From: Thermoplasmata archaeon
GTDB lineage: Archaea; Thermoplasmatota; Thermoplasmata; GCA-020350865
Reading direction: 5' to 3'
NCBI GenBank assembly: GCA_020348445.1
Contig: CP070751.1
Span: 3,318,841 to 3,366,236, forward strand
DNA length: 47,396 nt
Position 1 is the first letter of the stretch, and each line of letters opens with the position of its first letter. Both the position numbers and the translations under genes were made by a program. The notes under the pieces are model-generated. The model made no database searches. It saw only the letters and a program-made list of their open reading frames with translations, and was not told the DNA's origin. Below are positions 3 to 20,625 of the stretch, piece after piece.

Positions 3-420
3 AAGATCACCGAGCTTGAGGAAAGCCTTAAAGTTGGAGAGGAAACCTTAAAATCTAGAGAGGAGGAGCTTGAGAAGTTAAAAAGTGAAATCGAGGAAAC
101 AAAGAAAGCGAAAGATGTTGAGGAATCTGAGAGGATCACTGAATTGGATTCAAAGATTAAGGAGCAGACTGATAAGATCTCAGAACTTGAGGAAAACCTG
201 AAGAAGGGAGAAGAAACTTTAAAATCTAAAGATGATGAGCTTGAAAAATTAAAGAGTGCAATTGAGGAAGCAAAGAAGGCAAAAGAGGTTGAGGAATCTG
301 AGAGAATCAGCGAATTGGACTCGAAAGTCAAGGAACAGAGCGAGAAGATCGCTGAGCTTGAAGAAAACCTGAAAGAGAAGGAAGAGACCCTCGAGGGCAA
401 GGAAAAGGAGCTGGACGGGC
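3..420 (+). repeat. 171-nt (57-aa) tandem repeat within the coiled-coil gene
   Basis: AAGATC..GA(G/A)CTTGA starts at 3, 174 and 345. Protein unit KI.ELEE.LK.GEETLKS...ELEKLKS.IEE.KKAK.VEESERI.ELDSK.KEQ..; the third copy is partial. Confidence 0.85.
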
Positions 421-3400
421 TTCGCCAAACTATTGAAGGAGATAAGATCACCTTAGAGGAGAAAAGGACGTCCCTGGAAGAAAAAGATAAGGAAATACAA
501 GAAAAATTAAAAGAAATTGAGAAAGGGAAAGAGGCCCTAGAAAGCAGGGAAAAGGAATTTGTAGATCAAAGAGAGGATGTGGAAAGGAAAAATGAAGATT
601 TATTGAAAAGAGAAGATGAAGTTCAAGCATTGAAAAATGATTTGGAGCAAAGGGAATCTGACATGCAAAAATCTGAAAAGGAATTTGAAAGCAAAAAGAG
701 TGAGCTTGAAGACCTTTTGAAGAGGGTAGAAGAGGAAAAAGAGGCTGTAAAAGGCGAGGAAAAGGAGAAGATCATCTCTTTGGAGGAGCAGATTGCCGAG
801 CTAAATTCAAAGATATCCAGATATGAGGGTGAAAAAGAGGATTTGAGGGAGTCTTTGAGTGCAAAGGAAAAGGAGCTTTTAGAATTTCAGTCCAAGTACG
901 ATGAGGAAAAGAAGGTCCAAGAAGAAAAAATGGCTGCAATAACCAAAGAAAGAGCTGAATTTGAGGAAAAGGGAAGGGCTATAGAGGAACAATTAAAACA
1001 ATTTGAAGAGGAGAAAACTTCTATATCGGACAAGGAGAAGGAAATTCAGGATAAAGACAAGGAATTTACAGAATTAAAAGAGGAGCTGGAAAAGACACAA
1101 AAGGACCTGTCCAAGAAAGAGGAGAGCCTAAAATCCCTTAAAAAGGAGCTAAAACAAAGGGAAAAGGAGCTCAAGAAATCAGAAAAGGGCCTTGAAAAGA
1201 AAAAGGACGAGGTACAAAGGCTACTTACAAGGGTGGAGGAGGAAAAAGAGGCTGTAAAAGGCGAGGAGCAGGAGAGAATACTAGCATTGGAGCAGCAGAT
1301 TTCGGATTTGAACTCAAAACTCTCCCAATATGAGAGTGAAAAGGAGGAGCATGATGAAATCCTTTCAGAAAGGGCAAGGGAACTGGATGAAATGAAGGTG
1401 GGCTATGAAAAAGAAAGGGATTCACTGGCTGAGCAAGTTGAGTCTCTTACCAAGGAGAAGGGAAGTTTAGAGGAGAGAGTAGCGGAGCTTGAGGATGATA
1501 TATCCAAATTCGCAAAAAGGGAGAAGAAACTCGGCAAAAAGGAGAAGGAGACCGAAACAAAGGAACAGGATCTGGAGGCAAGGGAGGATAGTCTAAGAAC
1601 CGAGGCAAAAGAGCTTGTGGAATTGGATAAAAGGCTCAAAGAACAGATGGCAGAGCTAGATGGCAAGGAAAAGGAATTTGAAAAGAAAAATAGGTCTTTG
1701 GAGAAGAAAATCGAGAGATTCACAAAACAAGATGCCGAATTTAGGCAGAGGAAGAAAGATCATAGCCTTGAGGCAATGCGTCTGGGCAGGGAAAGAAAGA
1801 AAATAGAGCGGGAAATCGCTGATATCGAGGAGTTAAGACAGGCCCAAGAGGATGAGAGAAAGGAAAAAGAGGATGCCTTAAAGGAGCTTGAAGATAAAAT
1901 CCAAAAGAGAAATGAGGAGCTGGACGGAAGGTCCGCGGAACTTGATGAGAGAAAGGACGAACTCGATGCCCAGGTAAAATCCCTTGAGGAACGCACAAAC
2001 GAATTGGTGCAGGAAAGGGCATCATTTGAGGAGCAAAGAAAGGAACTTGAGGAACTACAAGACACCATAGAGAGCCAAAGAAAGACCCTTGAAAAACAAA
2101 GCAACAGCGTTTCTCAGCAGATGGAAAAGCTCGAGGTAAAAAAGGAAGAACTCAAGGGCTCAAAAGAGGAGATAAGGGCCCTGGAAAGACAGAGAAAGAG
2201 CGAGGAAAAGGAGCTTCAAAGAAGAGAAAAGGAGCTGGAAAAGGAAGCATCAAGCCTTGAGGATGAGAGTACCAGGCTAAAAGAAAAGGAAAGTGAGCTT
2301 ACTGAATTTGAAAAGAGGCTTGCTGTGCGGCAAAAGGAATTGGATGGGCAAAAGGAAAGGCTGGAAGAAGAACTACAAAGCTCGAAGGAACAGAACAAGG
2401 AACTAAAGAGATTGATTCAAGATGCCCAGGAAAGAGAAAAGCAGATAGAGATTACCGAAGGAAAATTGAGTGTTTCACTGGAGGATTTTGCACTAAGACA
2501 AAGGGAGTTTAAGAAAAGGGAGAAGGCAGTGGAGGCCGAGGTCAAAAAGGTTCAGAAAATAAAGGGAGATATCGATGCAAAGGAGGCAGAATTCCAAGAG
2601 CGGGAGGCTGCGATACGCAGTGAAAGAAAGGAAATCGATAATCTGATGAAACAGGTGGATAAGAAGACCAAGAAGCAAGAAACTGTTGAAAAACGGTTAA
2701 AAGATATAGCCAAGGAGAACGCTGAGGCCAAACGGGCTCTCAAGGAAAGAGAAACCAGGTTGTATGATCAGGAAGATGATATACTCACCAGGATGGAGGC
2801 TTTAACAGAAAACGAGGCCAAGTTCGCCGCAGATATGGAGGTTTTGGCAAAAAGAGAGGGCGATCTTACGGACCGGGAAAAGAAGCTCGAAGGTTTGGAT
2901 GTGCAGCTTAAAACCCTCACCAAAACACTTGAGGGGAGGATGGAAGAGGTAACTTTCGAGAAGAAAAAACTTGAGGAGGAAAAGGCGAATTTGGAAAAAT
3001 TGGAAGGCAAATACAATACCAATGTCTCTGCTTTAAATGAAACGGAAAAGACGCTCAAGGACAGGGAAACAAGGATTTTGGATATAGAGGATAGGATGAG
3101 GAGGGAAGCCGAGCACCTTGAAAAGGACAGGGAAGCCTTAAAGGCAAAGGGTGAGGAGATAGAGACAGTGAAGGCAAGTGCTCTGGCTGTTATGAAGTAT
3201 GCAAAGACATTGCAGGAGAAAAAGAAGGAGGAGCTTTTAATCCAGTTAAAAAGAGAAAACGAGAGGCTGGATCAGCAGAGGGCAGATATCGAGAAGAAGT
3301 TGAAGGAAAAGGAAATGGCACTTGACACAAAGACAAAGAAAATCGAGGAGGTCTTGGCAGATGCTGTGGAGAGGTCCTCGCGACTGAAGTGGAAGGAAGA

Positions 3401-3791
3401 GGAGCTCGAGGTGGAAATGGGGAAGCTAAAACGGGAAAAGGAGGAAATCTCAGGTGTTTGGAAGAAATTCGAGGAGGAAACCAAATCATTGGCAGCTGCT
3501 GAGAAGAACCTGGATGCAACAATCGTAAATAAGGTGAAGACGGCAACTGCAAAGGAGAGAAAGAAATTTAACAAGAAGCTGGAGGATTTGAAAGCAAAGG
3601 AAAAGGAGCTAAAGGACAAGGAGCGGGAGCTAAAAAGAAGGGAGGATGCTTTTGGAGGAACAGGTGCCCTTGCCAAAAGAGAAAAGGAGCTTAAAAAACG
3701 GGAGGAGGCCCAAAAGAAGAGGGAAAAGGACCTCGAGAAGAGAAAGGAGCACCTCGATGAACTGAGAAAGATGTTAAGTGATCTACTATAA
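3..3791 (+). CDS. Giant Lys/Glu-rich coiled-coil protein, 5'-partial (>1260 aa)
   Basis: The frame of ORF 144..3791 stays open back to base 3 (KITELEESLKVGEETLKSREEELEKLK...), so TTG144 is not the real start. Continuous heptad-like E/K/L composition; no ABC signature, Walker B or TM segment in the visible part. Confidence 0.85.
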   Translation, partial: KITELEESLKVGEETLKSREEELEKLKSEIEETKKAKDVEESERITELDSKIKEQTDKISELEENLKKGEETLKSKDDELEKLKSAIEEAKKAKEVEESERISELDSKVKEQSEKIAELEENLKEKEETLEGKEKELDGLRQTIEGDKITLEEKRTSLEEKDKEIQEKLKEIEKGKEALESREKEFVDQREDVERKNEDLLKREDEVQALKNDLEQRESDMQKSEKEFESKKSELEDLLKRVEEEKEAVKGEEKEKIISLEEQIAELNSKISRYEGEKEDLRESLSAKEKELLEFQSKYDEEKKVQEEKMAAITKERAEFEEKGRAIEEQLKQFEEEKTSISDKEKEIQDKDKEFTELKEELEKTQKDLSKKEESLKSLKKELKQREKELKKSEKGLEKKKDEVQRLLTRVEEEKEAVKGEEQERILALEQQISDLNSKLSQYESEKEEHDEILSERARELDEMKVGYEKERDSLAEQVESLTKEKGSLEERVAELEDDISKFAKREKKLGKKEKETETKEQDLEAREDSLRTEAKELVELDKRLKEQMAELDGKEKEFEKKNRSLEKKIERFTKQDAEFRQRKKDHSLEAMRLGRERKKIEREIADIEELRQAQEDERKEKEDALKELEDKIQKRNEELDGRSAELDERKDELDAQVKSLEERTNELVQERASFEEQRKELEELQDTIESQRKTLEKQSNSVSQQMEKLEVKKEELKGSKEEIRALERQRKSEEKELQRREKELEKEASSLEDESTRLKEKESELTEFEKRLAVRQKELDGQKERLEEELQSSKEQNKELKRLIQDAQEREKQIEITEGKLSVSLEDFALRQREFKKREKAVEAEVKKVQKIKGDIDAKEAEFQEREAAIRSERKEIDNLMKQVDKKTKKQETVEKRLKDIAKENAEAKRALKERETRLYDQEDDILTRMEALTENEAKFAADMEVLAKREGDLTDREKKLEGLDVQLKTLTKTLEGRMEEVTFEKKKLEEEKANLEKLEGKYNTNVSALNETEKTLKDRETRILDIEDRMRREAEHLEKDREALKAKGEEIETVKASALAVMKYAKTLQEKKKEELLIQLKRENERLDQQRADIEKKLKEKEMALDTKTKKIEEVLADAVERSSRLKWKEEELEVEMGKLKREKEEISGVWKKFEEETKSLAAAEKNLDATIVNKVKTATAKERKKFNKKLEDLKAKEKELKDKERELKRREDAFGGTGALAKREKELKKREEAQKKREKDLEKRKEHLDELRKMLSDLL
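715..1400 (+). repeat. Dispersed intragenic duplication (two ~55-aa copies, 507 nt apart)
   Basis: GAGGCTGTAAAAGGCGAGGA at 741 and 1248; LLKRVEEEKEAVKGEEKEKIISLEEQIAELNSK vs LLTRVEEEKEAVKGEEQERILALEQQISDLNSK. Confidence 0.8.
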
Positions 3792-11316: not shown

Positions 11317-13308
11317 TCATTGTTTTTTAAGCAGTTCTAATACCTCTTGGAAATCTATGCCCAGTTCCTTGATCTTCTCCAATGTGGGCATACCTTGTAC
11401 ATTCCATCCTCTGCGCTTGTAAACTGCATCTTTCAACTTCTCATATTCGGCTTCACGATACTTTCTTAGGGCATCCCTTTTTTCTTTGGTGGACATCCCT
11501 GAAGGATCGATTCCCACCTTCTCTTTAAGCTCCTTGTCATATCTGTCCTGTCTGCTTTCATATTCTTCCACTGTTACAGGTCCAACAGAGCGGTATGGCA
11601 CATTATCATGCTCTCTTTTGCCAAAACCCATGCGCAGATTGAATAAACGCTGAAAATTGTAAACCCTCTCACTTAAGGTGATTATGTCCTCAGGAGCGGT
11701 TTTTCTTCCAGTCACTGCAGTGAAGTACTTGCTGTACCATTCAACGTGTTTCATGACCTTTGCAGGCTCTGGGGTAGTCTTGTTATCCTCGGGAACGATA
11801 TCGTTCCACGGCAGCTTGCATAGGCCGCATAGACCAAACCAGGTACGAAACATAGGGAACCAATGCAGGGCTTCGGCCTTTTGTTCGAAAGTGGGCATCA
11901 GGTTGTGGACCATATCAAGGAAAATGAGCCAGGCCTCATCGTGCTGGGGCCCTTTTAGAGCAAGACCGTATCCCCCCTGCTGGGCCAGGGATTCCTTGGT
12001 GACATACTCAGAATATTCCAGCCCCTTGGCCTCCATTCCTATGTCATTTAAGATATTGGGATCTGCATCATATTTTTCCACAAACAGCTTTTTCATGTTT
12101 CTTATTCCTTGGCCAACGATCTTTCCAAATCCCTCACCTTTTGCCATTTGATGCAAAATTTCCAAAGCTGCATCCTCATTTCCGAACCGAAGTTCCAATC
12201 CCCCAGTTGCCTTATTATCGATTTGACCCATTTCATAGCATTCCATGGCAAATGCCATGGCTGTGCCAAAGGAGATGGTGTCTATACCATATGTGTCGCA
12301 GTAGAAGTTGATCTCTGTTATTGTGTCGGGATTGAAGATGCCGAGATTGCTTCCACAGCCTGCAATTGTCTCGTACTCTGGACCATCGACATACACCTTC
12401 TGGCCGGAAAAAGGGCCAGTTCTTGGCTGGAAATTGGCAACCACGTGGGAGCATGCCACAGGGCATCCTGCCCAGCATCCGTCAAAACCCGAATCAAATC
12501 TCTTTCTGTACGCCTTGGAACCGATGTTATCAGCACCTGGGTGGTTACCGAACCTAAAATTCTGCACTGGCAATAGGTCGAATTCGTTCATAATAGGGAC
12601 CAAATGTGTGGTTCCCACAGTGCTCATCTCATTTTGCTTTGGATCCAGTGTATGAATCTCAAGTGAATGCGACAGTCCAACCTCTTTCAGAAGCTCAGAA
12701 TCCGCAGGATTGTTTGGATCATCTGTAAGAGATATTGCACCTGTGGGGCAGACATAGGTACACGTTCCGCAACCCAGACAATCAGGATTCATTTCGTCAA
12801 AGGGCATAACCACCTGTCGTCTGTATCCTTGGTAGGAAAAATCAATTATATTCTGCTGCATAATATTTTTACAGGCATTTACACATCTTCCGCAGAGAAC
12901 ACATGCATTCTCTGATTCGTCGGCTAAGGGATGGGAATATCTTGGTTTTTGTACTCCGTACTCCTCTGCTAAATATTTAATGACAGGAACATTGGGCCAT
13001 CGGGAAAGCATCATCTCTAAAACGTTCTTTCGGGTTTTTATTATGGTATCGGATTTCGTGGATACTGAAAGCCCCTCGTCTTTTTTTCGTATGGGATAGT
13101 TGCATGATGAAACAACCTTGCTCTTGTTTTCCTTGGTAATCTCGCTGACGCACAGCCTGCAGTTTCCTAAGGCTCCAATGCGAGGGTGATAGCATAAGGA
13201 AGGTATCTCTATATCGAGCTTATCGGCAGCTTTCATGATAGTGGTTCCATCTTCCACCTCAGTTTCCTGACCATCAATTGTGATTTTTACCATTTCAGAT
13301 TCCCCCAT
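11317..13308 (-). CDS. Fusion: NuoG/HydA-N-type Fe-S module + C-terminal domains 2/3 of W-aldehyde:ferredoxin oxidoreductase
   Basis: RBS GGAGGTGG before ATG13308. [2Fe-2S] CYHP..GNCRLC..SSC and 2x[4Fe-4S] CVLCGRCVNAC / CLGCGTCTYVCP, then the AOR part: VGTTHL, CWAGCPVAC, DGPEYET, CDTYGIDTIS, GPQHDE, GLCKL, ERVYNFQRLFN, RRGW..QGMPT. Confidence 0.9.
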   Translation of the reverse strand: MGESEMVKITIDGQETEVEDGTTIMKAADKLDIEIPSLCYHPRIGALGNCRLCVSEITKENKSKVVSSCNYPIRKKDEGLSVSTKSDTIIKTRKNVLEMMLSRWPNVPVIKYLAEEYGVQKPRYSHPLADESENACVLCGRCVNACKNIMQQNIIDFSYQGYRRQVVMPFDEMNPDCLGCGTCTYVCPTGAISLTDDPNNPADSELLKEVGLSHSLEIHTLDPKQNEMSTVGTTHLVPIMNEFDLLPVQNFRFGNHPGADNIGSKAYRKRFDSGFDGCWAGCPVACSHVVANFQPRTGPFSGQKVYVDGPEYETIAGCGSNLGIFNPDTITEINFYCDTYGIDTISFGTAMAFAMECYEMGQIDNKATGGLELRFGNEDAALEILHQMAKGEGFGKIVGQGIRNMKKLFVEKYDADPNILNDIGMEAKGLEYSEYVTKESLAQQGGYGLALKGPQHDEAWLIFLDMVHNLMPTFEQKAEALHWFPMFRTWFGLCGLCKLPWNDIVPEDNKTTPEPAKVMKHVEWYSKYFTAVTGRKTAPEDIITLSERVYNFQRLFNLRMGFGKREHDNVPYRSVGPVTVEEYESRQDRYDKELKEKVGIDPSGMSTKEKRDALRKYREAEYEKLKDAVYKRRGWNVQGMPTLEKIKELGIDFQEVLELLKKQ

Positions 13309-13309
13309 G

Positions 13310-15193
13310 TTATTCCACCTCCACTGCATCAAATTTACAGACCTCACGACATATCCCGCATTTGACACACTTGCTCTGATCTATCGTGTGAAGCTCTTTC
13401 TTCTCTCCGGAGATTGCATCTTCAGGACAGTGCTTGGGACATACTCCACATCCATTGCAGTTCTCTTTACTTATGGTGTACTGAATTAGGGCCTTGCATA
13501 CCCCTGCAGGACATTTCTTATCAATGATGTGGGCCTTGTACTCATCCTTGAAGTACTTTAAAGTGCTTAGAGCTGGATTGGGAGCAGAGCCACCTAAATC
13601 ACATAAAGATGCATTTTTTATTGTTTCTGAGATATCGGAAAGCATTTCCAAATCACTTGGTTCCCCCAAGCCATTTGTGACTCTAGCCAAAATCGTCTTT
13701 ATTATTACCAGGCCTTCACGGCATGGCGTGCATTTTCCACAAGATTCCTCCACCAAAAAATCAATGAAGTACTTGGCAACGTCAACCATGCACCTGCTGT
13801 CGTCCATGACAATCAGACCACCTGAGCCCATCATGGAGCCGGCTTGGGTAAGGGTATCAAAATCTACAGGGAGGTTGAGAAGATCGGCAGGTATACAGCC
13901 TCCAGAAGGACCACCTGTTTGAACAGCCTTGCATTGTCTTCCTTCGGGAACACCACCTCCGATTTTATTGACTATTTCTTCAAGGGTGATTCCCATGGGG
14001 ACCTCCACAAGTCCTGTATTGGCAATATCGCCAACAAGTGAGAAAACTTTGGTACCCGAGCTGCCCTTCCAGGGTGATTCTGAAACATCCCCTGAACCGA
14101 TTTTAGAGAACCATTTTCCCCCTTTTTCTATTATCACAGGGATATTGGCCCAGGTCTCCACATTGTTTAGGACAGTGGGCAAGCCCTTATAGCCAGATTC
14201 AACAGTATGGATGTACTTTGAATGAGGTTCCCCCACCTTTCCCTCCATGGCAGTCATAAGAGCGCTTGACTCGCCTGACACGAAGGCACCTGCACCTTGG
14301 TGGATATTTATATCGAAGCTGAAATCAGTATCAAATATTTTTTGACCCAAAAGACCATAGTCGCGGGCCTGTTGAATTGCCTTTCTCAGTCGCTCTAATG
14401 CCAGAGGATATTCCTTTCTTATGTAAACAAAACCCTCCTTTGCACCAATGGCATATGCTCCAATGGCCATGCCTTCGATCACACTGTGAGGATCGGCTTC
14501 GATTATGCTTCTGTCCATAAATGCACCTGGATCACCCTCGTCGGCATTGCATACCAAATAAGGGGCCACATCGGTTTTTTTGGCAGAACTTATACATGAT
14601 TCCCATTTGATACCAGTTGGAAAACCCCCGCCACCGCGTCCCCGAATACCTGAGGTCTTTACTTCATTTAGAATTTCATTTGGTTTCATCTCAGAAAGAG
14701 CATGTGCCAGGGCTTGATATCCTCCTCTGCCAATATAATCATCTATCTGCTCAGGATCGATGGCACCTCGGTTTCGAAGGATTATTAACTGCTGTTGTTT
14801 GAAGAATTGGATATCCTTCATTTTCGGGGTACGTGTTTCATCCACTGGCGAGATGTACATCAGATCTTGTACGGGTTTTCCATTTATCAGATGTTCATCA
14901 ACGATTGTGGAGACATCATCCAATTTTAGATTCAAATACAAGGTACCTTCAGGTGAAACGAGCATTAGCGGGCCTTGGGCACAAAAACCGTTGCATCCTG
15001 TAGCAATAACACGATAATCAGATTCAAGGTTCTTTTCCTTGAGTTCTTTTTCCAATGCATCTCTGATAATAAATGCCTTGTTTGCCACACAACCTGTTCC
15101 TGCACAGACCAAAAGTGATGCTTTAAATTTCTCTGAAGTGGATTTGTTTCTCTCGCTTATCTGTTTCAGATCAGTAATTGTTATCTTGGTCAT
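13310..15193 (-). CDS. NuoF/HydB/BfuB-like FMN-NAD(H)-binding subunit
   Basis: N-terminal CAGTGC..CNGFC, RGRGGGGFPTGIKW, CNADEGDPGAFMDR, NNVET, GGPSGG, ESCGKCTPCREG, HIIDKKCPAGVC, and two C-terminal [4Fe-4S] motifs. Confidence 0.93.
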   Translation of the reverse strand: MTKITITDLKQISERNKSTSEKFKASLLVCAGTGCVANKAFIIRDALEKELKEKNLESDYRVIATGCNGFCAQGPLMLVSPEGTLYLNLKLDDVSTIVDEHLINGKPVQDLMYISPVDETRTPKMKDIQFFKQQQLIILRNRGAIDPEQIDDYIGRGGYQALAHALSEMKPNEILNEVKTSGIRGRGGGGFPTGIKWESCISSAKKTDVAPYLVCNADEGDPGAFMDRSIIEADPHSVIEGMAIGAYAIGAKEGFVYIRKEYPLALERLRKAIQQARDYGLLGQKIFDTDFSFDINIHQGAGAFVSGESSALMTAMEGKVGEPHSKYIHTVESGYKGLPTVLNNVETWANIPVIIEKGGKWFSKIGSGDVSESPWKGSSGTKVFSLVGDIANTGLVEVPMGITLEEIVNKIGGGVPEGRQCKAVQTGGPSGGCIPADLLNLPVDFDTLTQAGSMMGSGGLIVMDDSRCMVDVAKYFIDFLVEESCGKCTPCREGLVIIKTILARVTNGLGEPSDLEMLSDISETIKNASLCDLGGSAPNPALSTLKYFKDEYKAHIIDKKCPAGVCKALIQYTISKENCNGCGVCPKHCPEDAISGEKKELHTIDQSKCVKCGICREVCKFDAVEVE

Positions 15194-15660
15194 TTTGTAT
15201 CCACCTCCCCCACTTTTCTTGCAAGAAGTCCCTCAATTGTACTTGATTTGGCCTTGCCAATTATAGCATCATCAAGTGATATTACAGGTGCGAGACTGCA
15301 GCATCCAAGACATCGTACGTACTTCAGGGTGTACTGCAGATCATCTGTTGTTTCACCGTCAGAAAGCCCACATTTTCTTTGAAGGGATTCAAGTATCCGA
15401 AATGCGCCTTTTACATAACAGGTTGTGCCAGTACATACCTGGATTTCATGCTCCCCCCTGGGTTTGAGACTAAATGCCTTGTAAAATGTGGCGAGGTAGT
15501 ACAACTGTGTTCTGGGAATACCTGTGGATTCGGATATCTCTTCTATTACTTCTTTAGGTATATAGCGAAATTCAGACTGGATATCCTGGAGCATCTCAAT
15601 TGCATAATTTGGATCCCCATTCCATTTTTTTATGATGGATTGAACCTTGTCTGTTTTCAT
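15190..15660 (-). CDS. NuoE/HydC/BfuC-like [2Fe-2S] thioredoxin-fold subunit
   Basis: ATFYKAFSLKPRG, VCTGTTC, RCLGCCSLAPV; 4-nt overlap with the downstream gene. Confidence 0.93.
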   Translation of the reverse strand: MKTDKVQSIIKKWNGDPNYAIEMLQDIQSEFRYIPKEVIEEISESTGIPRTQLYYLATFYKAFSLKPRGEHEIQVCTGTTCYVKGAFRILESLQRKCGLSDGETTDDLQYTLKYVRCLGCCSLAPVISLDDAIIGKAKSSTIEGLLARKVGEVDTK

Positions 15661-15661
15661 T

Positions 15662-16432
15662 CTATCCCTCCCTCAGTTTTGGAATTTCTTTTGTGTTTAT
15701 GACCCATTTTGGACTGGGGTAGGTCTTTTTTGCAACCAAAGCCAATATGTTTTTGTTGCGAAGCACTGTTCCTATTCCACCCCTACCTGCCTGTTTATAT
15801 CTAACTGTCCTTCTTACTGTATCATACCACGAAAAATTCAGGCAGCCGAAAAACGTGTTTTTGGCACCGGGTCCCGCAGTAACTGTGGATATGCTCCTTA
15901 GATTCTCTTTTCCATATTTCTTTGTGAGCAATGCCCCAAGAAGATGGGTCTCCTTTGGAAGATCAGAGCCTTCCTCGATATATACCTTATTTGAATCTCC
16001 ATCGATGACTATCACGATATCAGATTTAGCCTTACCTTGGATTTCTATGGCATCCCAACCTGAAAATTTTAGATAGGGACCAAAATAACCCCCAACATTG
16101 GAATCGATGATGGAGCCTGTCAGAGGGGAGATGGTTACAGCGATGCTCTTTCCGCTTCCCGGGTATATCGTTGTTCCTCCCAGAGGGCCGCAGGCGATAC
16201 AGATTTCGTTTTCTGGATCGTCCCATTTTATTGCCCTGTCCCAGGGAAGACCGTTCCAAAGTAGCCATAGATCAAATCCCTTTCCCCCCACGAAAATCTC
16301 CTTCATTTGATCTGAAACAGGCTTTTCTAGAATCTTCATTTCTGAGACGTTGACATAAAGTGTGCGGTTATTGTAGCCTTTGTCCAAATCCCTTTGTTCA
16401 TAATCAAATTCTGCAAACCTCAACAAACTCAC
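15662..16432 (-). CDS. Stand-alone N-terminal domain of W-aldehyde:ferredoxin oxidoreductase (start 16432, 16426 or 16423)
   Basis: GGKGF, GPLGG, ISPLTG...DSNVGGYFGPYLKFSGWDAIEIQG, GPGAK, QAGRGGIGTV. Ends about 20 aa after the domain-1 boundary. Confidence 0.9.
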   Translation of the reverse strand: MSLLRFAEFDYEQRDLDKGYNNRTLYVNVSEMKILEKPVSDQMKEIFVGGKGFDLWLLWNGLPWDRAIKWDDPENEICIACGPLGGTTIYPGSGKSIAVTISPLTGSIIDSNVGGYFGPYLKFSGWDAIEIQGKAKSDIVIVIDGDSNKVYIEEGSDLPKETHLLGALLTKKYGKENLRSISTVTAGPGAKNTFFGCLNFSWYDTVRRTVRYKQAGRGGIGTVLRNKNILALVAKKTYPSPKWVINTKEIPKLREG

Positions 16433-16574
16433 CCCTTTGGCACGGGAATAGCATAGGTCAACTTTAATATTTTGATTCCATGCCTAGGGAATATTTCGGG
16501 ATTTGCGGGACGTTTAAATATGCAAATACGATATGGGTTAAGAAACAATCCCAATTGTATTTCAGGAGGATTGC
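16433..16574. promoter_or_regulatory. Divergent promoter region between the split-AOR operon and the intact aor
   Basis: TTTAAATA at 16513-16520 (+), flanked by the inverted repeat ATTTGC 16501-16506 / GCAAAT 16522-16527; AT-rich box near 16463-16471 for the minus strand; RBS AGGAGG before 16575. Confidence 0.5.
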
Positions 16575-18245
16575 ATGTTCAAGATATTGGAGGTGGATCT
16601 CACAAACAAGAGGGTATTAGAGGATACCATATCCCAGGATTATTCAAAGTACCTTGGGGGAAGAGGACTTGCAGTGAGACTTTTTACAGATCTTATGGGA
16701 TCGAATGTTGAACCTCTGTCCCCTGAGAACATGATCATATTCTCGACAGGTGCATTGATAAACTCCAAAATACCCATGTCGGGAAGGTCCAATGCGACAA
16801 CCATCTCACCACTTACCAATACGATATTCAGCTCAAATGTTGGAGGTATGTTTGGAAAGAATCTGACTTCTACAGGATTCGATGTTCTTGTGATATCGGG
16901 ATCTTCTGAAGAACCTCTGTATCTTGTGATGGATAAAAAATCACAACTTGAGAACGCTAAAAAGCTCTGGGGAAAGGATGTTTTCCAGTCAACTGAATAT
17001 TTAATAAAAAAGCATGGTGTTTCTGAGGGGAATTGCGCTGTCATTGGCCCAGCCGGGGAGAACCAAAATTTCTTTGGAAATATAATGGTCCAAAGACATA
17101 GGGCATTTGGAAGGGGAGGATTAGGTGCAGTTTTGGGCTCAAAGAGACTGAAAGCAATTGTTTTTAAGGGAAAACAAAAGCGAACTGAACCTAAATTCAA
17201 GGACATGGCAAAACGATTGAGGGATAAAGTCGCAAAAATAGACAGTAAACTGAAGACCCAAGGCACATCAACTATCGTGAATACAGCCAATAAGAACGAG
17301 GCGTTCCCAACGCGGTTTTACGTTACTAATAAATTCAAGTATGCTGGAAATATCAATGGAAACAAAATGGAGACGCACAAGGTAAAAAGCGGAACTTGTT
17401 ACTCGTGCCCTGTTGCCTGCAAGATGATCACAAAAAGTGAGAAGTACGATATCGTTACAGATGGGCCCGAATATGAAACCATCGTTTTTTTCGGTTCGAA
17501 TTTGGGAATGTCGAACCTTGACTCAATAATCAAATCCAATGATTTATGCGACAGATTTGGGCTTGATACCATCTCCACTGGAGCCATAATAGGAGCTTTT
17601 ATCGAGACCGTAAAGAAGAAAAAGAGGAAATATAAAATCTCATGGGATGATGAGAAAAAGGTACATGAACTGATTGTGAAAATCGCAAACACTCGTGGAG
17701 TGGGAAGGGAACTTCAGAAGGGGACAGACGCTTTCTGTAAAAAATATGGCATTAAAGCTCAAACTGTAAAGAGCCTTGATGTTCCAGGCCATGATCCAAG
17801 AGCCCTGCATGGGCAGGCTCTGAGTTATGCAGTAAGCAATAGAGGTGCTGACCATCTGTACTCCACCACATACAAGGACGAGTACAACCATCCCAAAAGA
17901 AGGGAGATCAAAGGTAAAGCAAAACTTGTGATAAGAAATGAGAACAGAAACGCGGTCTTGGATTCTCTGGGCCTCTGCAAGTTCTCCACGAGCTTCTACA
18001 AGGATGATGATTACCTTGAGATAATGAGCGTGCTTCTTGAAAGGGATGTAAATATGGAAGAATTCCAGAAAATCGGCTCTGAGATCGTGAACAGGGAGAG
18101 GACGTTCAACAACAAACGGGATTTTGATTCTAAAGATGACATCTTGCCTAAAAGGTTAGATAATCCCAACCTTAAAAAGGGGCTTGCCGAGTATTACAAG
18201 CTACGGGGATGGTCGAAAGATGGAAGGGTGAAAGAAGAGAAATAG
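16575..18245 (+). CDS. aor: Tungsten-containing aldehyde:ferredoxin oxidoreductase family, full length
   Basis: GGRGL, SPLT...SNVGG, GRGGLGAVLGSKRLKAI, CYSCPVAC, GPEYET, CDRFGLDTIS, DPRA..GQALSYAVSNRGADH, DSLGLCKF, YYKLRGW. Confidence 0.92.
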   Translation: MFKILEVDLTNKRVLEDTISQDYSKYLGGRGLAVRLFTDLMGSNVEPLSPENMIIFSTGALINSKIPMSGRSNATTISPLTNTIFSSNVGGMFGKNLTSTGFDVLVISGSSEEPLYLVMDKKSQLENAKKLWGKDVFQSTEYLIKKHGVSEGNCAVIGPAGENQNFFGNIMVQRHRAFGRGGLGAVLGSKRLKAIVFKGKQKRTEPKFKDMAKRLRDKVAKIDSKLKTQGTSTIVNTANKNEAFPTRFYVTNKFKYAGNINGNKMETHKVKSGTCYSCPVACKMITKSEKYDIVTDGPEYETIVFFGSNLGMSNLDSIIKSNDLCDRFGLDTISTGAIIGAFIETVKKKKRKYKISWDDEKKVHELIVKIANTRGVGRELQKGTDAFCKKYGIKAQTVKSLDVPGHDPRALHGQALSYAVSNRGADHLYSTTYKDEYNHPKRREIKGKAKLVIRNENRNAVLDSLGLCKFSTSFYKDDDYLEIMSVLLERDVNMEEFQKIGSEIVNRERTFNNKRDFDSKDDILPKRLDNPNLKKGLAEYYKLRGWSKDGRVKEEK

Positions 18246-20175: not shown

Positions 20176-20625
20176 TTAAACAGCAAACCTACCCAGGCCA
20201 GTTTGTATCGGTTTAGCAAAGATACCGCCAGATTGTGATTCTGTGATATAGAATTCAATTTTATCGGATGTGACTTCACCGACACTGCGGAAGAACTTCC
20301 CCCTGCTCCAGAGATGTCCACCCCACAGCTGTTTTTTCAGGCTAGGGAATCTCCAGAACAGTTTCCGTGCAGAGATTCCCTTGAACAACTGGAATGTTCG
20401 AGAAAGGGAATGTGTGGGGTGCATCTCTAAAAACAGATGCACGTGGTCTTCCATGATTTCCAGTGCAAGGATCGTATACCCGTACTGGTCTGCAATCTCA
20501 TGGAATATCAATCTGCATCCCCTTGCTACATGGATATCTTTAAATATTTTCCTTCTATACTTAGGCACCAGAACTATATGATAGTTCGACTCTCCATACG
20601 CATGGCTAAAGCTTCTTAAACTCAT
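20176..20625 (-). CDS. tnpA: IS200/IS605 Y1 HUH transposase
   Basis: HIVLVPKYRRK, EDHVHLF (HUH), LWSRGKFFRSVG, catalytic Y in IEFYITESQ. Confidence 0.95.
   Translation of the reverse strand: MSLRSFSHAYGESNYHIVLVPKYRRKIFKDIHVARGCRLIFHEIADQYGYTILALEIMEDHVHLFLEMHPTHSLSRTFQLFKGISARKLFWRFPSLKKQLWGGHLWSRGKFFRSVGEVTSDKIEFYITESQSGGIFAKPIQTGLGRFAV

Follow-up and report, generated by a model that had tools for sequence, protein, structure and literature searches.

An AOR-family catalytic subunit encoded in two pieces around a predicted Bfu-type electron module in a Thermoplasmata archaeon

The split aldehyde oxidoreductase (AOR) operon is found on the minus strand at positions 11317-16432 of a 47,396-nucleotide stretch of contig CP070751.1 (assembly GCA_020348445.1, positions 3,318,841 to 3,366,236), here called the window. 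The closest database proteins carry the NCBI label Thermoplasmata archaeon. Open reading frames (ORFs) and Pfam matches define four translationally coupled genes, g1 to g4, which encode the catalytic subunit of an AOR/WOR-family enzyme as two complementary polypeptides. On balance, the four genes are likely to specify a Bfu-type, NAD+/ferredoxin-coupled tungsten AOR that dispenses with the WorS subunit and has a two-piece catalytic subunit. An earlier reading of the sequence by a model (the original prediction) had proposed an AOR split by a NuoE/NuoF/Fe-S module with its C-terminal half fused to the Fe-S domain, and both the ORFs and the Pfam matches agree with this layout.

The first gene, g1 (15662-16432, 256 residues), encodes AOR domain 1 alone, equivalent to the N-terminal half of WorL (PF02730, AFOR_N, 1e-46). 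It is followed by g2 (15190-15660, 156 residues; PF01257, 1e-44), which encodes a NuoE/BfuC-like thioredoxin-like [2Fe-2S] subunit, and by g3 (13310-15193, 627 residues), whose Pfam domain set is that of a NuoF/BfuB-like flavoprotein. The last gene, g4 (11317-13308, 663 residues), joins Fer2_4 and two 4Fe-4S motifs to AFOR_C. Residues 1-198 of g4 (12715-13308) comprise a BfuA-type N-terminal Fe-S domain like those of NuoG and HydA, and residues 199-663 (11317-12714) comprise AOR domains 2 and 3, the C-terminal half of WorL (PF01314, 9e-104). The genes are as tightly packed as originally described, with one nucleotide between g1 and g2, an ATGA overlap between g2 and g3, and one nucleotide between g3 and g4. 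We take ATG 13308 as the g4 start, not the GTG at 13368 proposed by the ORF list, because the ATG lies one nucleotide past the g3 stop and agrees with homologues.

The two halves fit together exactly when aligned with the intact, 707-residue orthologue of genome G004, which belongs to the same genus. The g1 protein aligns to residues 11-253 of this orthologue, and the C-half restarts at residue 254 (NNPAD), from which point it is 81% identical. There is no gap and no overlap, so that no residue is lost or duplicated; complementarity of this kind had been part of the original prediction. AFOR_N in g1 and AFOR_C in g4 jointly span the intact orthologue, although they occupy separate ORFs with two genes and an Fe-S domain between them. 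The g1 protein also matches residues 7-210 of the Pyrococcus furiosus AOR structure 1aor, and it terminates with a P-x-W-x-[IV] motif specific to split forms and then a nine-residue tail.

The residues that form the active site are retained across the cut. The cluster cysteines, the EYE motif and the GPQH histidine, whose retention had been noted earlier, are invariant among 14 homologues. In alignments to 1aor and 1b25, the EYE and GPQH motifs map to E313 of P. furiosus AOR (PfAOR) and to H437 of FOR (equivalent to PfAOR H448). The C-half thus keeps PfAOR T243 and E313 and FOR Y416 and H437 (equivalent to PfAOR Y427 and H448), together with three cluster cysteines plus GLC and the DTYGIDT pterin motif. 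On the g1 side, K95, N112, K213, Q214 and R217 are invariant in 16 split N-halves. They correspond to PfAOR R76, N93, R182, A183 and R186, which contact the pterin phosphates and Mg in the 1AOR structure.

The halves had been expected to dock, and structure prediction places them together (ipSAE 0.95, 0.95 and 0.96, versus 0.00 for the best of three controls), with at least 91% agreement between runs and a partner pLDDT of at least 88. The docking mark that we used lets through 58 of 80 solved complexes and 2 of 110 mismatched pairs. A pass would be expected from likeness to solved single-chain AORs, and the prediction thus points to likeness, not to binding.

The split architecture is widespread. 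With one genome taken for each species, a profile search detected the fusion of the Fe-S domain to AFOR_C at 26 loci, and the order N-half, NuoE, NuoF, Fe-S::C-half is present in all 16 of the loci with enough upstream sequence (L015-L020, L031, L043, L045, L049, L059, L061, L073, L077, L079 and L087). At least 16 bacterial split loci, from about ten phyla, are known from our searches, and their hosts include Myxococcota, Aegiribacteria, Cloacimonadota, Bacillota, Sumerlaeota, Bdellovibrionota and Krumholzibacteriota. In archaea, the split order is found in two genera (genomes G002 and G126, and the genus g134). The fused architecture also accounts for 110 of the best 120 matches in a collection of 5.8 billion proteins, whereas a metagenome scan returned intact relatives only. 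The cut site is identical in every split lineage: the N-half ends past P-x-W-x-[IV], and the C-half begins with N-x-P-x-D directly past the Fe-S domain's final cluster motif. A ThiF-family gene adjoins 10 of 18 bacterial split operons and is the sole recurrent neighbour in bacteria; genes of this family are known WOR accessories (PMC13328260).

Mis-assembly, or decay of an aor pseudogene broken by an unrelated insertion, is hardly credible as a source of this arrangement. Apart from the unusual layout itself, nothing speaks for it. Independent assemblies of many organisms share both the gene order and the junction, all frames are open, and the cofactor residues are invariant. The congener G002 carries this operon too, in full synteny. 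Comparison with G002 gives nonsynonymous divergence (dN) of 0.12-0.20 with synonymous divergence (dS) saturated, and dN/dS is 0.04-0.11 for g1 to g3 (0.04 for g1 and 0.11 for g2), so the relaxed selection that would have counted against the original prediction is not seen. Because the gene order recurs, synteny with G002 is complete and dN/dS is low, we exclude mis-assembly, a unique accident and relaxed selection, and reject the artefact explanation on conservation and selection.

Several lineages vary the boundaries between the genes. The N-half reads in frame into NuoE at L031, L045 and L077 (about 410 residues) and in the archaeal genus g134 (413-415 residues). At L059, L079 and L087 (about 1050 residues) and L073 (888 residues), it reads into NuoE and NuoF as one ORF. 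The lengths of N-half matches in a representative library fit stand-alone, N::E, N::E::F and intact forms. No protein longer than 1161 residues that carries Fe-S::C-half was found, which argues weakly against an all-in-one fusion. At L075 (3526-7853), from a Deferrimicrobium metagenome-assembled genome (MAG), the N-half and Fe-S::C-half are separated only by a shortened NuoF-like match (query residues 128-568), and the N-half frame is open for 765 residues. The C-half of locus L013, from a Planctomycetota MAG, clusters with intact AORs labelled Pseudomonadota and not with the main split clade.

The module between the halves resembles the core of bifurcating enzymes. The g3 protein consists of an N-terminal [2Fe-2S] domain, the Nuo51 FMN/NAD(H) site, an SLBB domain, the NuoF-type NADH_4Fe-4S domain with its [4Fe-4S] cluster, and a C-terminal 2x Fer4 region predicted to carry two [4Fe-4S] clusters. 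This is the full domain set of a bifurcating BfuB, and its domains and motifs accommodate clusters B1-B5 of the published BfuB definition (PMC9304861). The motif in the B1 region is identical to that of Acetomicrobium mobile WorB, and a histidine stands at the B2 position. Bifurcating structures match g3 from end to end (HydB 7q4v_B, 1e-220; WorB 9mqx_B, 4e-207; NiFe-HydB 7t2r; and NfnB), whereas the match to Complex I NuoF is limited to residues 147-559.

The Fe-S domain of g4 contains one [2Fe-2S] and two [4Fe-4S] motifs and lacks a His-ligated cluster. Its 12 cysteines (4+4+4) are invariant among 14 homologues, and its closest solved match is WorA (9mqx_A residues 5-189, 1e-39). This match stops at residue 189 of 247, where AFOR_C starts in g4. 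With g2 as the BfuC [2Fe-2S] subunit and the g4 domain as the N-terminal part of BfuA, which has clusters A1, A2 and A4, the structural components that define the Bfu family are present. Neither the operon nor the neighbouring genes that were scanned include a WorS-like polyferredoxin gene, in line with the original prediction of an enzyme without a small WorS subunit. The intact WorL and the WorA Zn-finger/helix plug that also mark WorABCSL are likewise absent from the operon. For none of the four proteins does an NCBIfam model attain its cut-off. Judged by its domains, the module is of the Bfu type, with a Type 1-like fusion of BfuA to the catalytic domain, but the fusion takes in only two thirds of the AOR. 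The NAD(H)/ferredoxin function originally assigned to the module is consistent with the domain set of g3.

The same split complex might instead be simply NAD(H)-linked and non-bifurcating, with a function like that of AorABC and with NuoEF in the place of the FAD subunit. NuoEF-type modules do serve non-bifurcating enzymes as well (PMC9304861), and aldehyde oxidation is exergonic with either acceptor. However, non-bifurcating NuoF homologues lack clusters B2-B5 (PMC9304861), and g3 has both the N-terminal [2Fe-2S] and the C-terminal 2x[4Fe-4S] domains as well as its end-to-end matches to BfuB structures. We therefore regard a non-bifurcating complex as unlikely.

For the favoured bifurcating enzyme, we infer the metal, the aldehyde substrate, the electron path, bifurcation and the direction of the reaction as follows. 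The four gene products would form a single complex, a W (or Mo) bis-pyranopterin AOR of the AOR/WOR family, whose active site would be assembled from g1 (domain 1) and the C-terminal part of g4 (domains 2 and 3). An aldehyde would be oxidised at the metal site, and the electrons would pass to the AOR [4Fe-4S] cluster. They would then move to the covalently attached BfuA-type Fe-S domain, which would stand in for the WorS wire and the WorA plug, and on to the BfuB/BfuC core (g3 and g2), where an FMN-centred Bfu mechanism would co-reduce NAD+ and ferredoxin.

Bfu enzymes are in principle reversible, so perhaps the complex runs backwards by confurcation, with NADH and reduced ferredoxin reducing a carboxylic acid to an aldehyde, for example for alcohol formation in fermenters or syntrophs. 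The hosts are indeed anaerobic fermenters or syntroph-like (Cloacimonadota, Syntrophomonadaceae, Aegiribacteria). However, the acid/aldehyde couple lies near -560 mV (table of PMC9304861), which is unfavourable for a mixed NADH/ferredoxin pool, and alcohol dehydrogenase is not a recurrent neighbour of split operons. Reverse operation thus seems quite improbable.

Several observations weigh against the proposed bifurcating aldehyde oxidoreductase. The first cluster motif is CxxxCxxxC, which is one residue longer than the CxxCxxxC of PfAOR. An AlphaFold2 model of g4 alone, made from a 14-row alignment, has a pLDDT of 60 and a pTM of 0.49, and the geometry between the clusters of the Fe-S domain and the AOR is not derivable from it. 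At L013 (109-2882), the N-half is followed directly by Fe-S::C-half without NuoE or NuoF between them, and therefore the split is not strictly dependent on a flavoprotein in cis. Finally, the AOR is of a "long" type of about 707 residues that shares only about 25-30% identity with solved AORs and for which no characterised member was identified, so the substrate is not fixed by the sequence.

This distance from all solved AORs leaves room for a non-aldehyde as third substrate, in a BamB-like or otherwise novel reaction of the long clade. The NuoEFG-like BamGHI proteins accompany the tungsten enzyme BamB, which also fits such a reaction. However, the match to BamB is weak (4z3w, 1.5e-15 for the N-half and 2e-4 for the C-terminal part), and the BamC/Hdr-like genes that would mark a BamB-type class II benzoyl-CoA reductase were not found nearby. 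Moreover, T243, E313, Y427 and H448 in PfAOR numbering, all of them kept here, are listed as conserved in aldehyde-oxidising WORs (PMC13328260). A non-aldehyde substrate is accordingly quite improbable, and an aldehyde remains the preferred assignment.

The locus also exists without the module. In G004, the region is colinear with the window on both flanks, where the shared genes encode FKBP, a PKD protein, a divergent 556-residue AOR, a TPR protein and an SHMT-like protein, and it carries one intact AOR. By blastn synteny with G004 contig C308 and by the protein junction, what is missing there is exactly window 12715-15691 (2,977 bp, minus strand), a block of about 3 kb that comprises the g1 tail and stop codon, the whole of g2 and g3, and the part of g4 that encodes the Fe-S domain. 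The cassette therefore consists of two genes, the 5' domain of a third and a short g1 tail, and not of the three genes originally proposed. Residues from about 120 to 247 of g1 (15692-16075) are 76-93% identical to the split G002 protein and only 41-70% identical to the intact G004 protein. For the first 120 residues of g1 and for the C-half, G002 and G004 are at about the same distance. This bias could mean that the segment has co-adapted to the cassette or has been inherited together with it.

A second archaeal genus repeats the pattern. Of 401 genomes sampled from the phylum, 95 carry the long AOR clade, and the fused form is confined to G000 (the genome of the window), G126 and five species of g134. 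Within g134, split genomes (G295, G292 and G265) and intact genomes (G170, G373 and G235) are colinear around the gene. Identity between the split halves and the intact orthologues is 70-90%, but it falls to 29% over about 30 residues at the junction. When the intact sequences L193, L197 and L192 are compared with the split L191 at this junction, the intact linker resembles that of distant intact clades (L-x-E-V-G). The divergent linker could have arisen by short-tract gene conversion or by rapid remodelling after re-fusion.

Phylogenies suggest that the split and intact states have interchanged repeatedly. In a C-half tree built from 106 sequences, the label split or intact has to change at least four to five times, and a 36-row subset rejects the grouping of all split forms in one clade (log-likelihood difference 152; approximately unbiased test, p-AU 1.6e-6). 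The NuoF proteins of all split operons form one group, apart from the NuoF paralogues of the genome itself, and the g134 NuoF is sister to that of Aegiribacteria (support 99). The C-half data do not reject a clade of all six g134 genes plus Aegiribacteria (p-AU 0.23, intact sisters included); a discordance between cassette and halves in g134 was considered and is unsupported by this test. The simplest reading for g134 is probably transfer of the whole operon followed by loss of the cassette, with re-fusion, in some species, because the C-half data allow the placement with Aegiribacteria that NuoF shows. For the genus of the window, which lies among intact archaeal AORs, gain appears at least as likely as loss. 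A mosaic origin of the window's halves from bacterial donors was also considered and rejected, as sliding-window identity is archaeal-type throughout.

The original prediction had the cassette inserted into an aor gene. This holds to the extent that sister species in two archaeal genera lack exactly this block; insertion as the direction of the event does not follow, and loss is more parsimonious in g134. Both the direction of the individual events and their vehicle, putatively recombination of split with intact alleles, are inferred. A more general model, which we put forward tentatively and at somewhat less than even odds, is that the NuoE-NuoF-BfuA(N) block acts as a reversible module in the linker between domains 1 and 2 of one tungsten AOR clade. 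The module would come and go in situ, probably when split and intact alleles recombine, would cross between Bacteria and Archaea, and would toggle the site between a ferredoxin-only and an NAD+/ferredoxin-bifurcating mode.

Upstream of g1, a divergent intergenic region (16433-16574, on neither strand in particular), recognised by reading the sequence, is common to the split operon and an adjoining intact AOR gene. A TATA-like sequence, ATATTAAAG, is present at 16470-16462 on the minus strand, about 30 nucleotides upstream of the g1 GTG, and is a putative promoter element of the split operon. The sequence AAAGGGG immediately precedes the g1 start. The adjoining gene (16575-18245, plus strand) encodes an intact AOR of 556 residues with AFOR_N and AFOR_C, is transcribed divergently from the operon at a distance of 142 bp, and is about 23-31% identical to the split enzyme. 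Its position is kept in G002 and G004, with the cassette present or absent. The genome, a single archaeal contig of 5.16 Mb, contains five AOR genes besides the split one, all intact and 23-31% identical to it.

Other features of the window and of its genome are more remote from the operon. An IS200-like Y1 transposase gene (PF01797, 7e-36) is located at 20176-20625 on the minus strand, 3.7 kb from the operon. A very long ORF of at least 1262 residues (3-3791, plus strand) lies in a stretch of extreme purine skew, with a GC skew of 0.42 and an AT skew of 0.45 over positions 1-2000. Elsewhere in the same genome (G000, contig C1), further NuoF-like genes at 1563816-1565474 and 2987402-2989380 are each followed by genes for BfuA-type Fe-S proteins (open frames of 594 and 1101 residues), and these pairs probably represent other Bfu-type complexes.

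Database names of the split-operon proteins are generic, and a limited full-text literature search found no description of a split AOR or of a BfuA::AFOR_C fusion. Wor-Bfu enzymes are listed solely as BfuABC with separate S and L subunits (PMC9304861), no AOR-type Type 1 Bfu was found in that paper, and the four types of WOR that the 2025 structure paper recognises within clade 87 include no split one (PMC12318220). A 2026 classification took proteins with IPR013983 and IPR001203 together (PMC13328260); therefore split forms were excluded by design, and the widespread form described here has probably gone uncounted in a census that required both domains in one protein. Within the limits of this search, the architecture that was originally called previously unrecognised is apparently undescribed, as a variant within the WOR and Bfu families, although it is widespread and not unique.

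If the proposed enzyme is correct, it would represent a new structural type for both the WOR and the Bfu families, with an active site formed by two chains. Fusion of BfuA to part of the catalytic subunit would make the WorS wire unneeded and force a 1:1 stoichiometry. The hosts (Cloacimonadota, Aegiribacteria, Krumholzibacteriota, Myxococcota, Bacillota and some archaea) are typical of anoxic sediments and digesters. Pairs of sister species with and without the cassette at one locus would constitute a natural experiment on the wiring of a redox module into an existing enzyme, and they would also bear on how well proteins tolerate cutting and rejoining at a domain linker.

The split enzyme shares features with several known systems. 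Like P. furiosus AOR (1AOR) and single-chain WorL, it has the three-domain fold, the [4Fe-4S] cysteines, the pterin motifs and the catalytic Glu, His, Tyr and Thr. However, P. furiosus AOR is a single chain that reduces ferredoxin directly, and the clade described here has about 100 additional residues at the C-terminal end. AorABC of Aromatoleum aromaticum (8C0Z) and BamBCDEFGHI likewise wire a subunit of the tungsten AOR family to NAD(H)-linked or NuoEFG-like modules. In contrast, their catalytic subunit is intact, and it is served by a separate Fe-S subunit (AorA or BamC) and by an FAD subunit or Hdr-like modules; we know of no split or fusion in either system.

Type 1 Bfu enzymes, such as the HydABC [FeFe]-hydrogenase and NfnABC, have the same BfuBC core, and in them the BfuA Fe-S domain also covalently precedes the catalytic domain (PMC9304861). 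Their BfuA carries the whole catalytic domain, whereas g4 carries two of the three AOR domains and needs a second polypeptide. The closest parallel in composition is WorABCSL of A. mobile, a Type 2 Bfu (PDB 9MQX; PMC12318220) that also combines a catalytic module of the tungsten AOR family with a BfuABC core, has a BfuA without the His-ligated A3 cluster, and couples aldehyde oxidation with reduction of NAD+ and of ferredoxin, a coupling that is only proposed for the split enzyme. WorL is one intact chain, whereas AOR domain 1 is separate here, or is fused to BfuC/BfuB in some bacteria, and the split AOR belongs to a different, uncharacterised clade. In WorABCSL, the separate WorS polyferredoxin serves as a nanowire for the electrons (1:3 stoichiometry), into which the C-terminal Zn-finger and helix of WorA plug (PMC12318220). 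The split enzyme has no WorS, and its AOR C-half stands where WorA has this plug.

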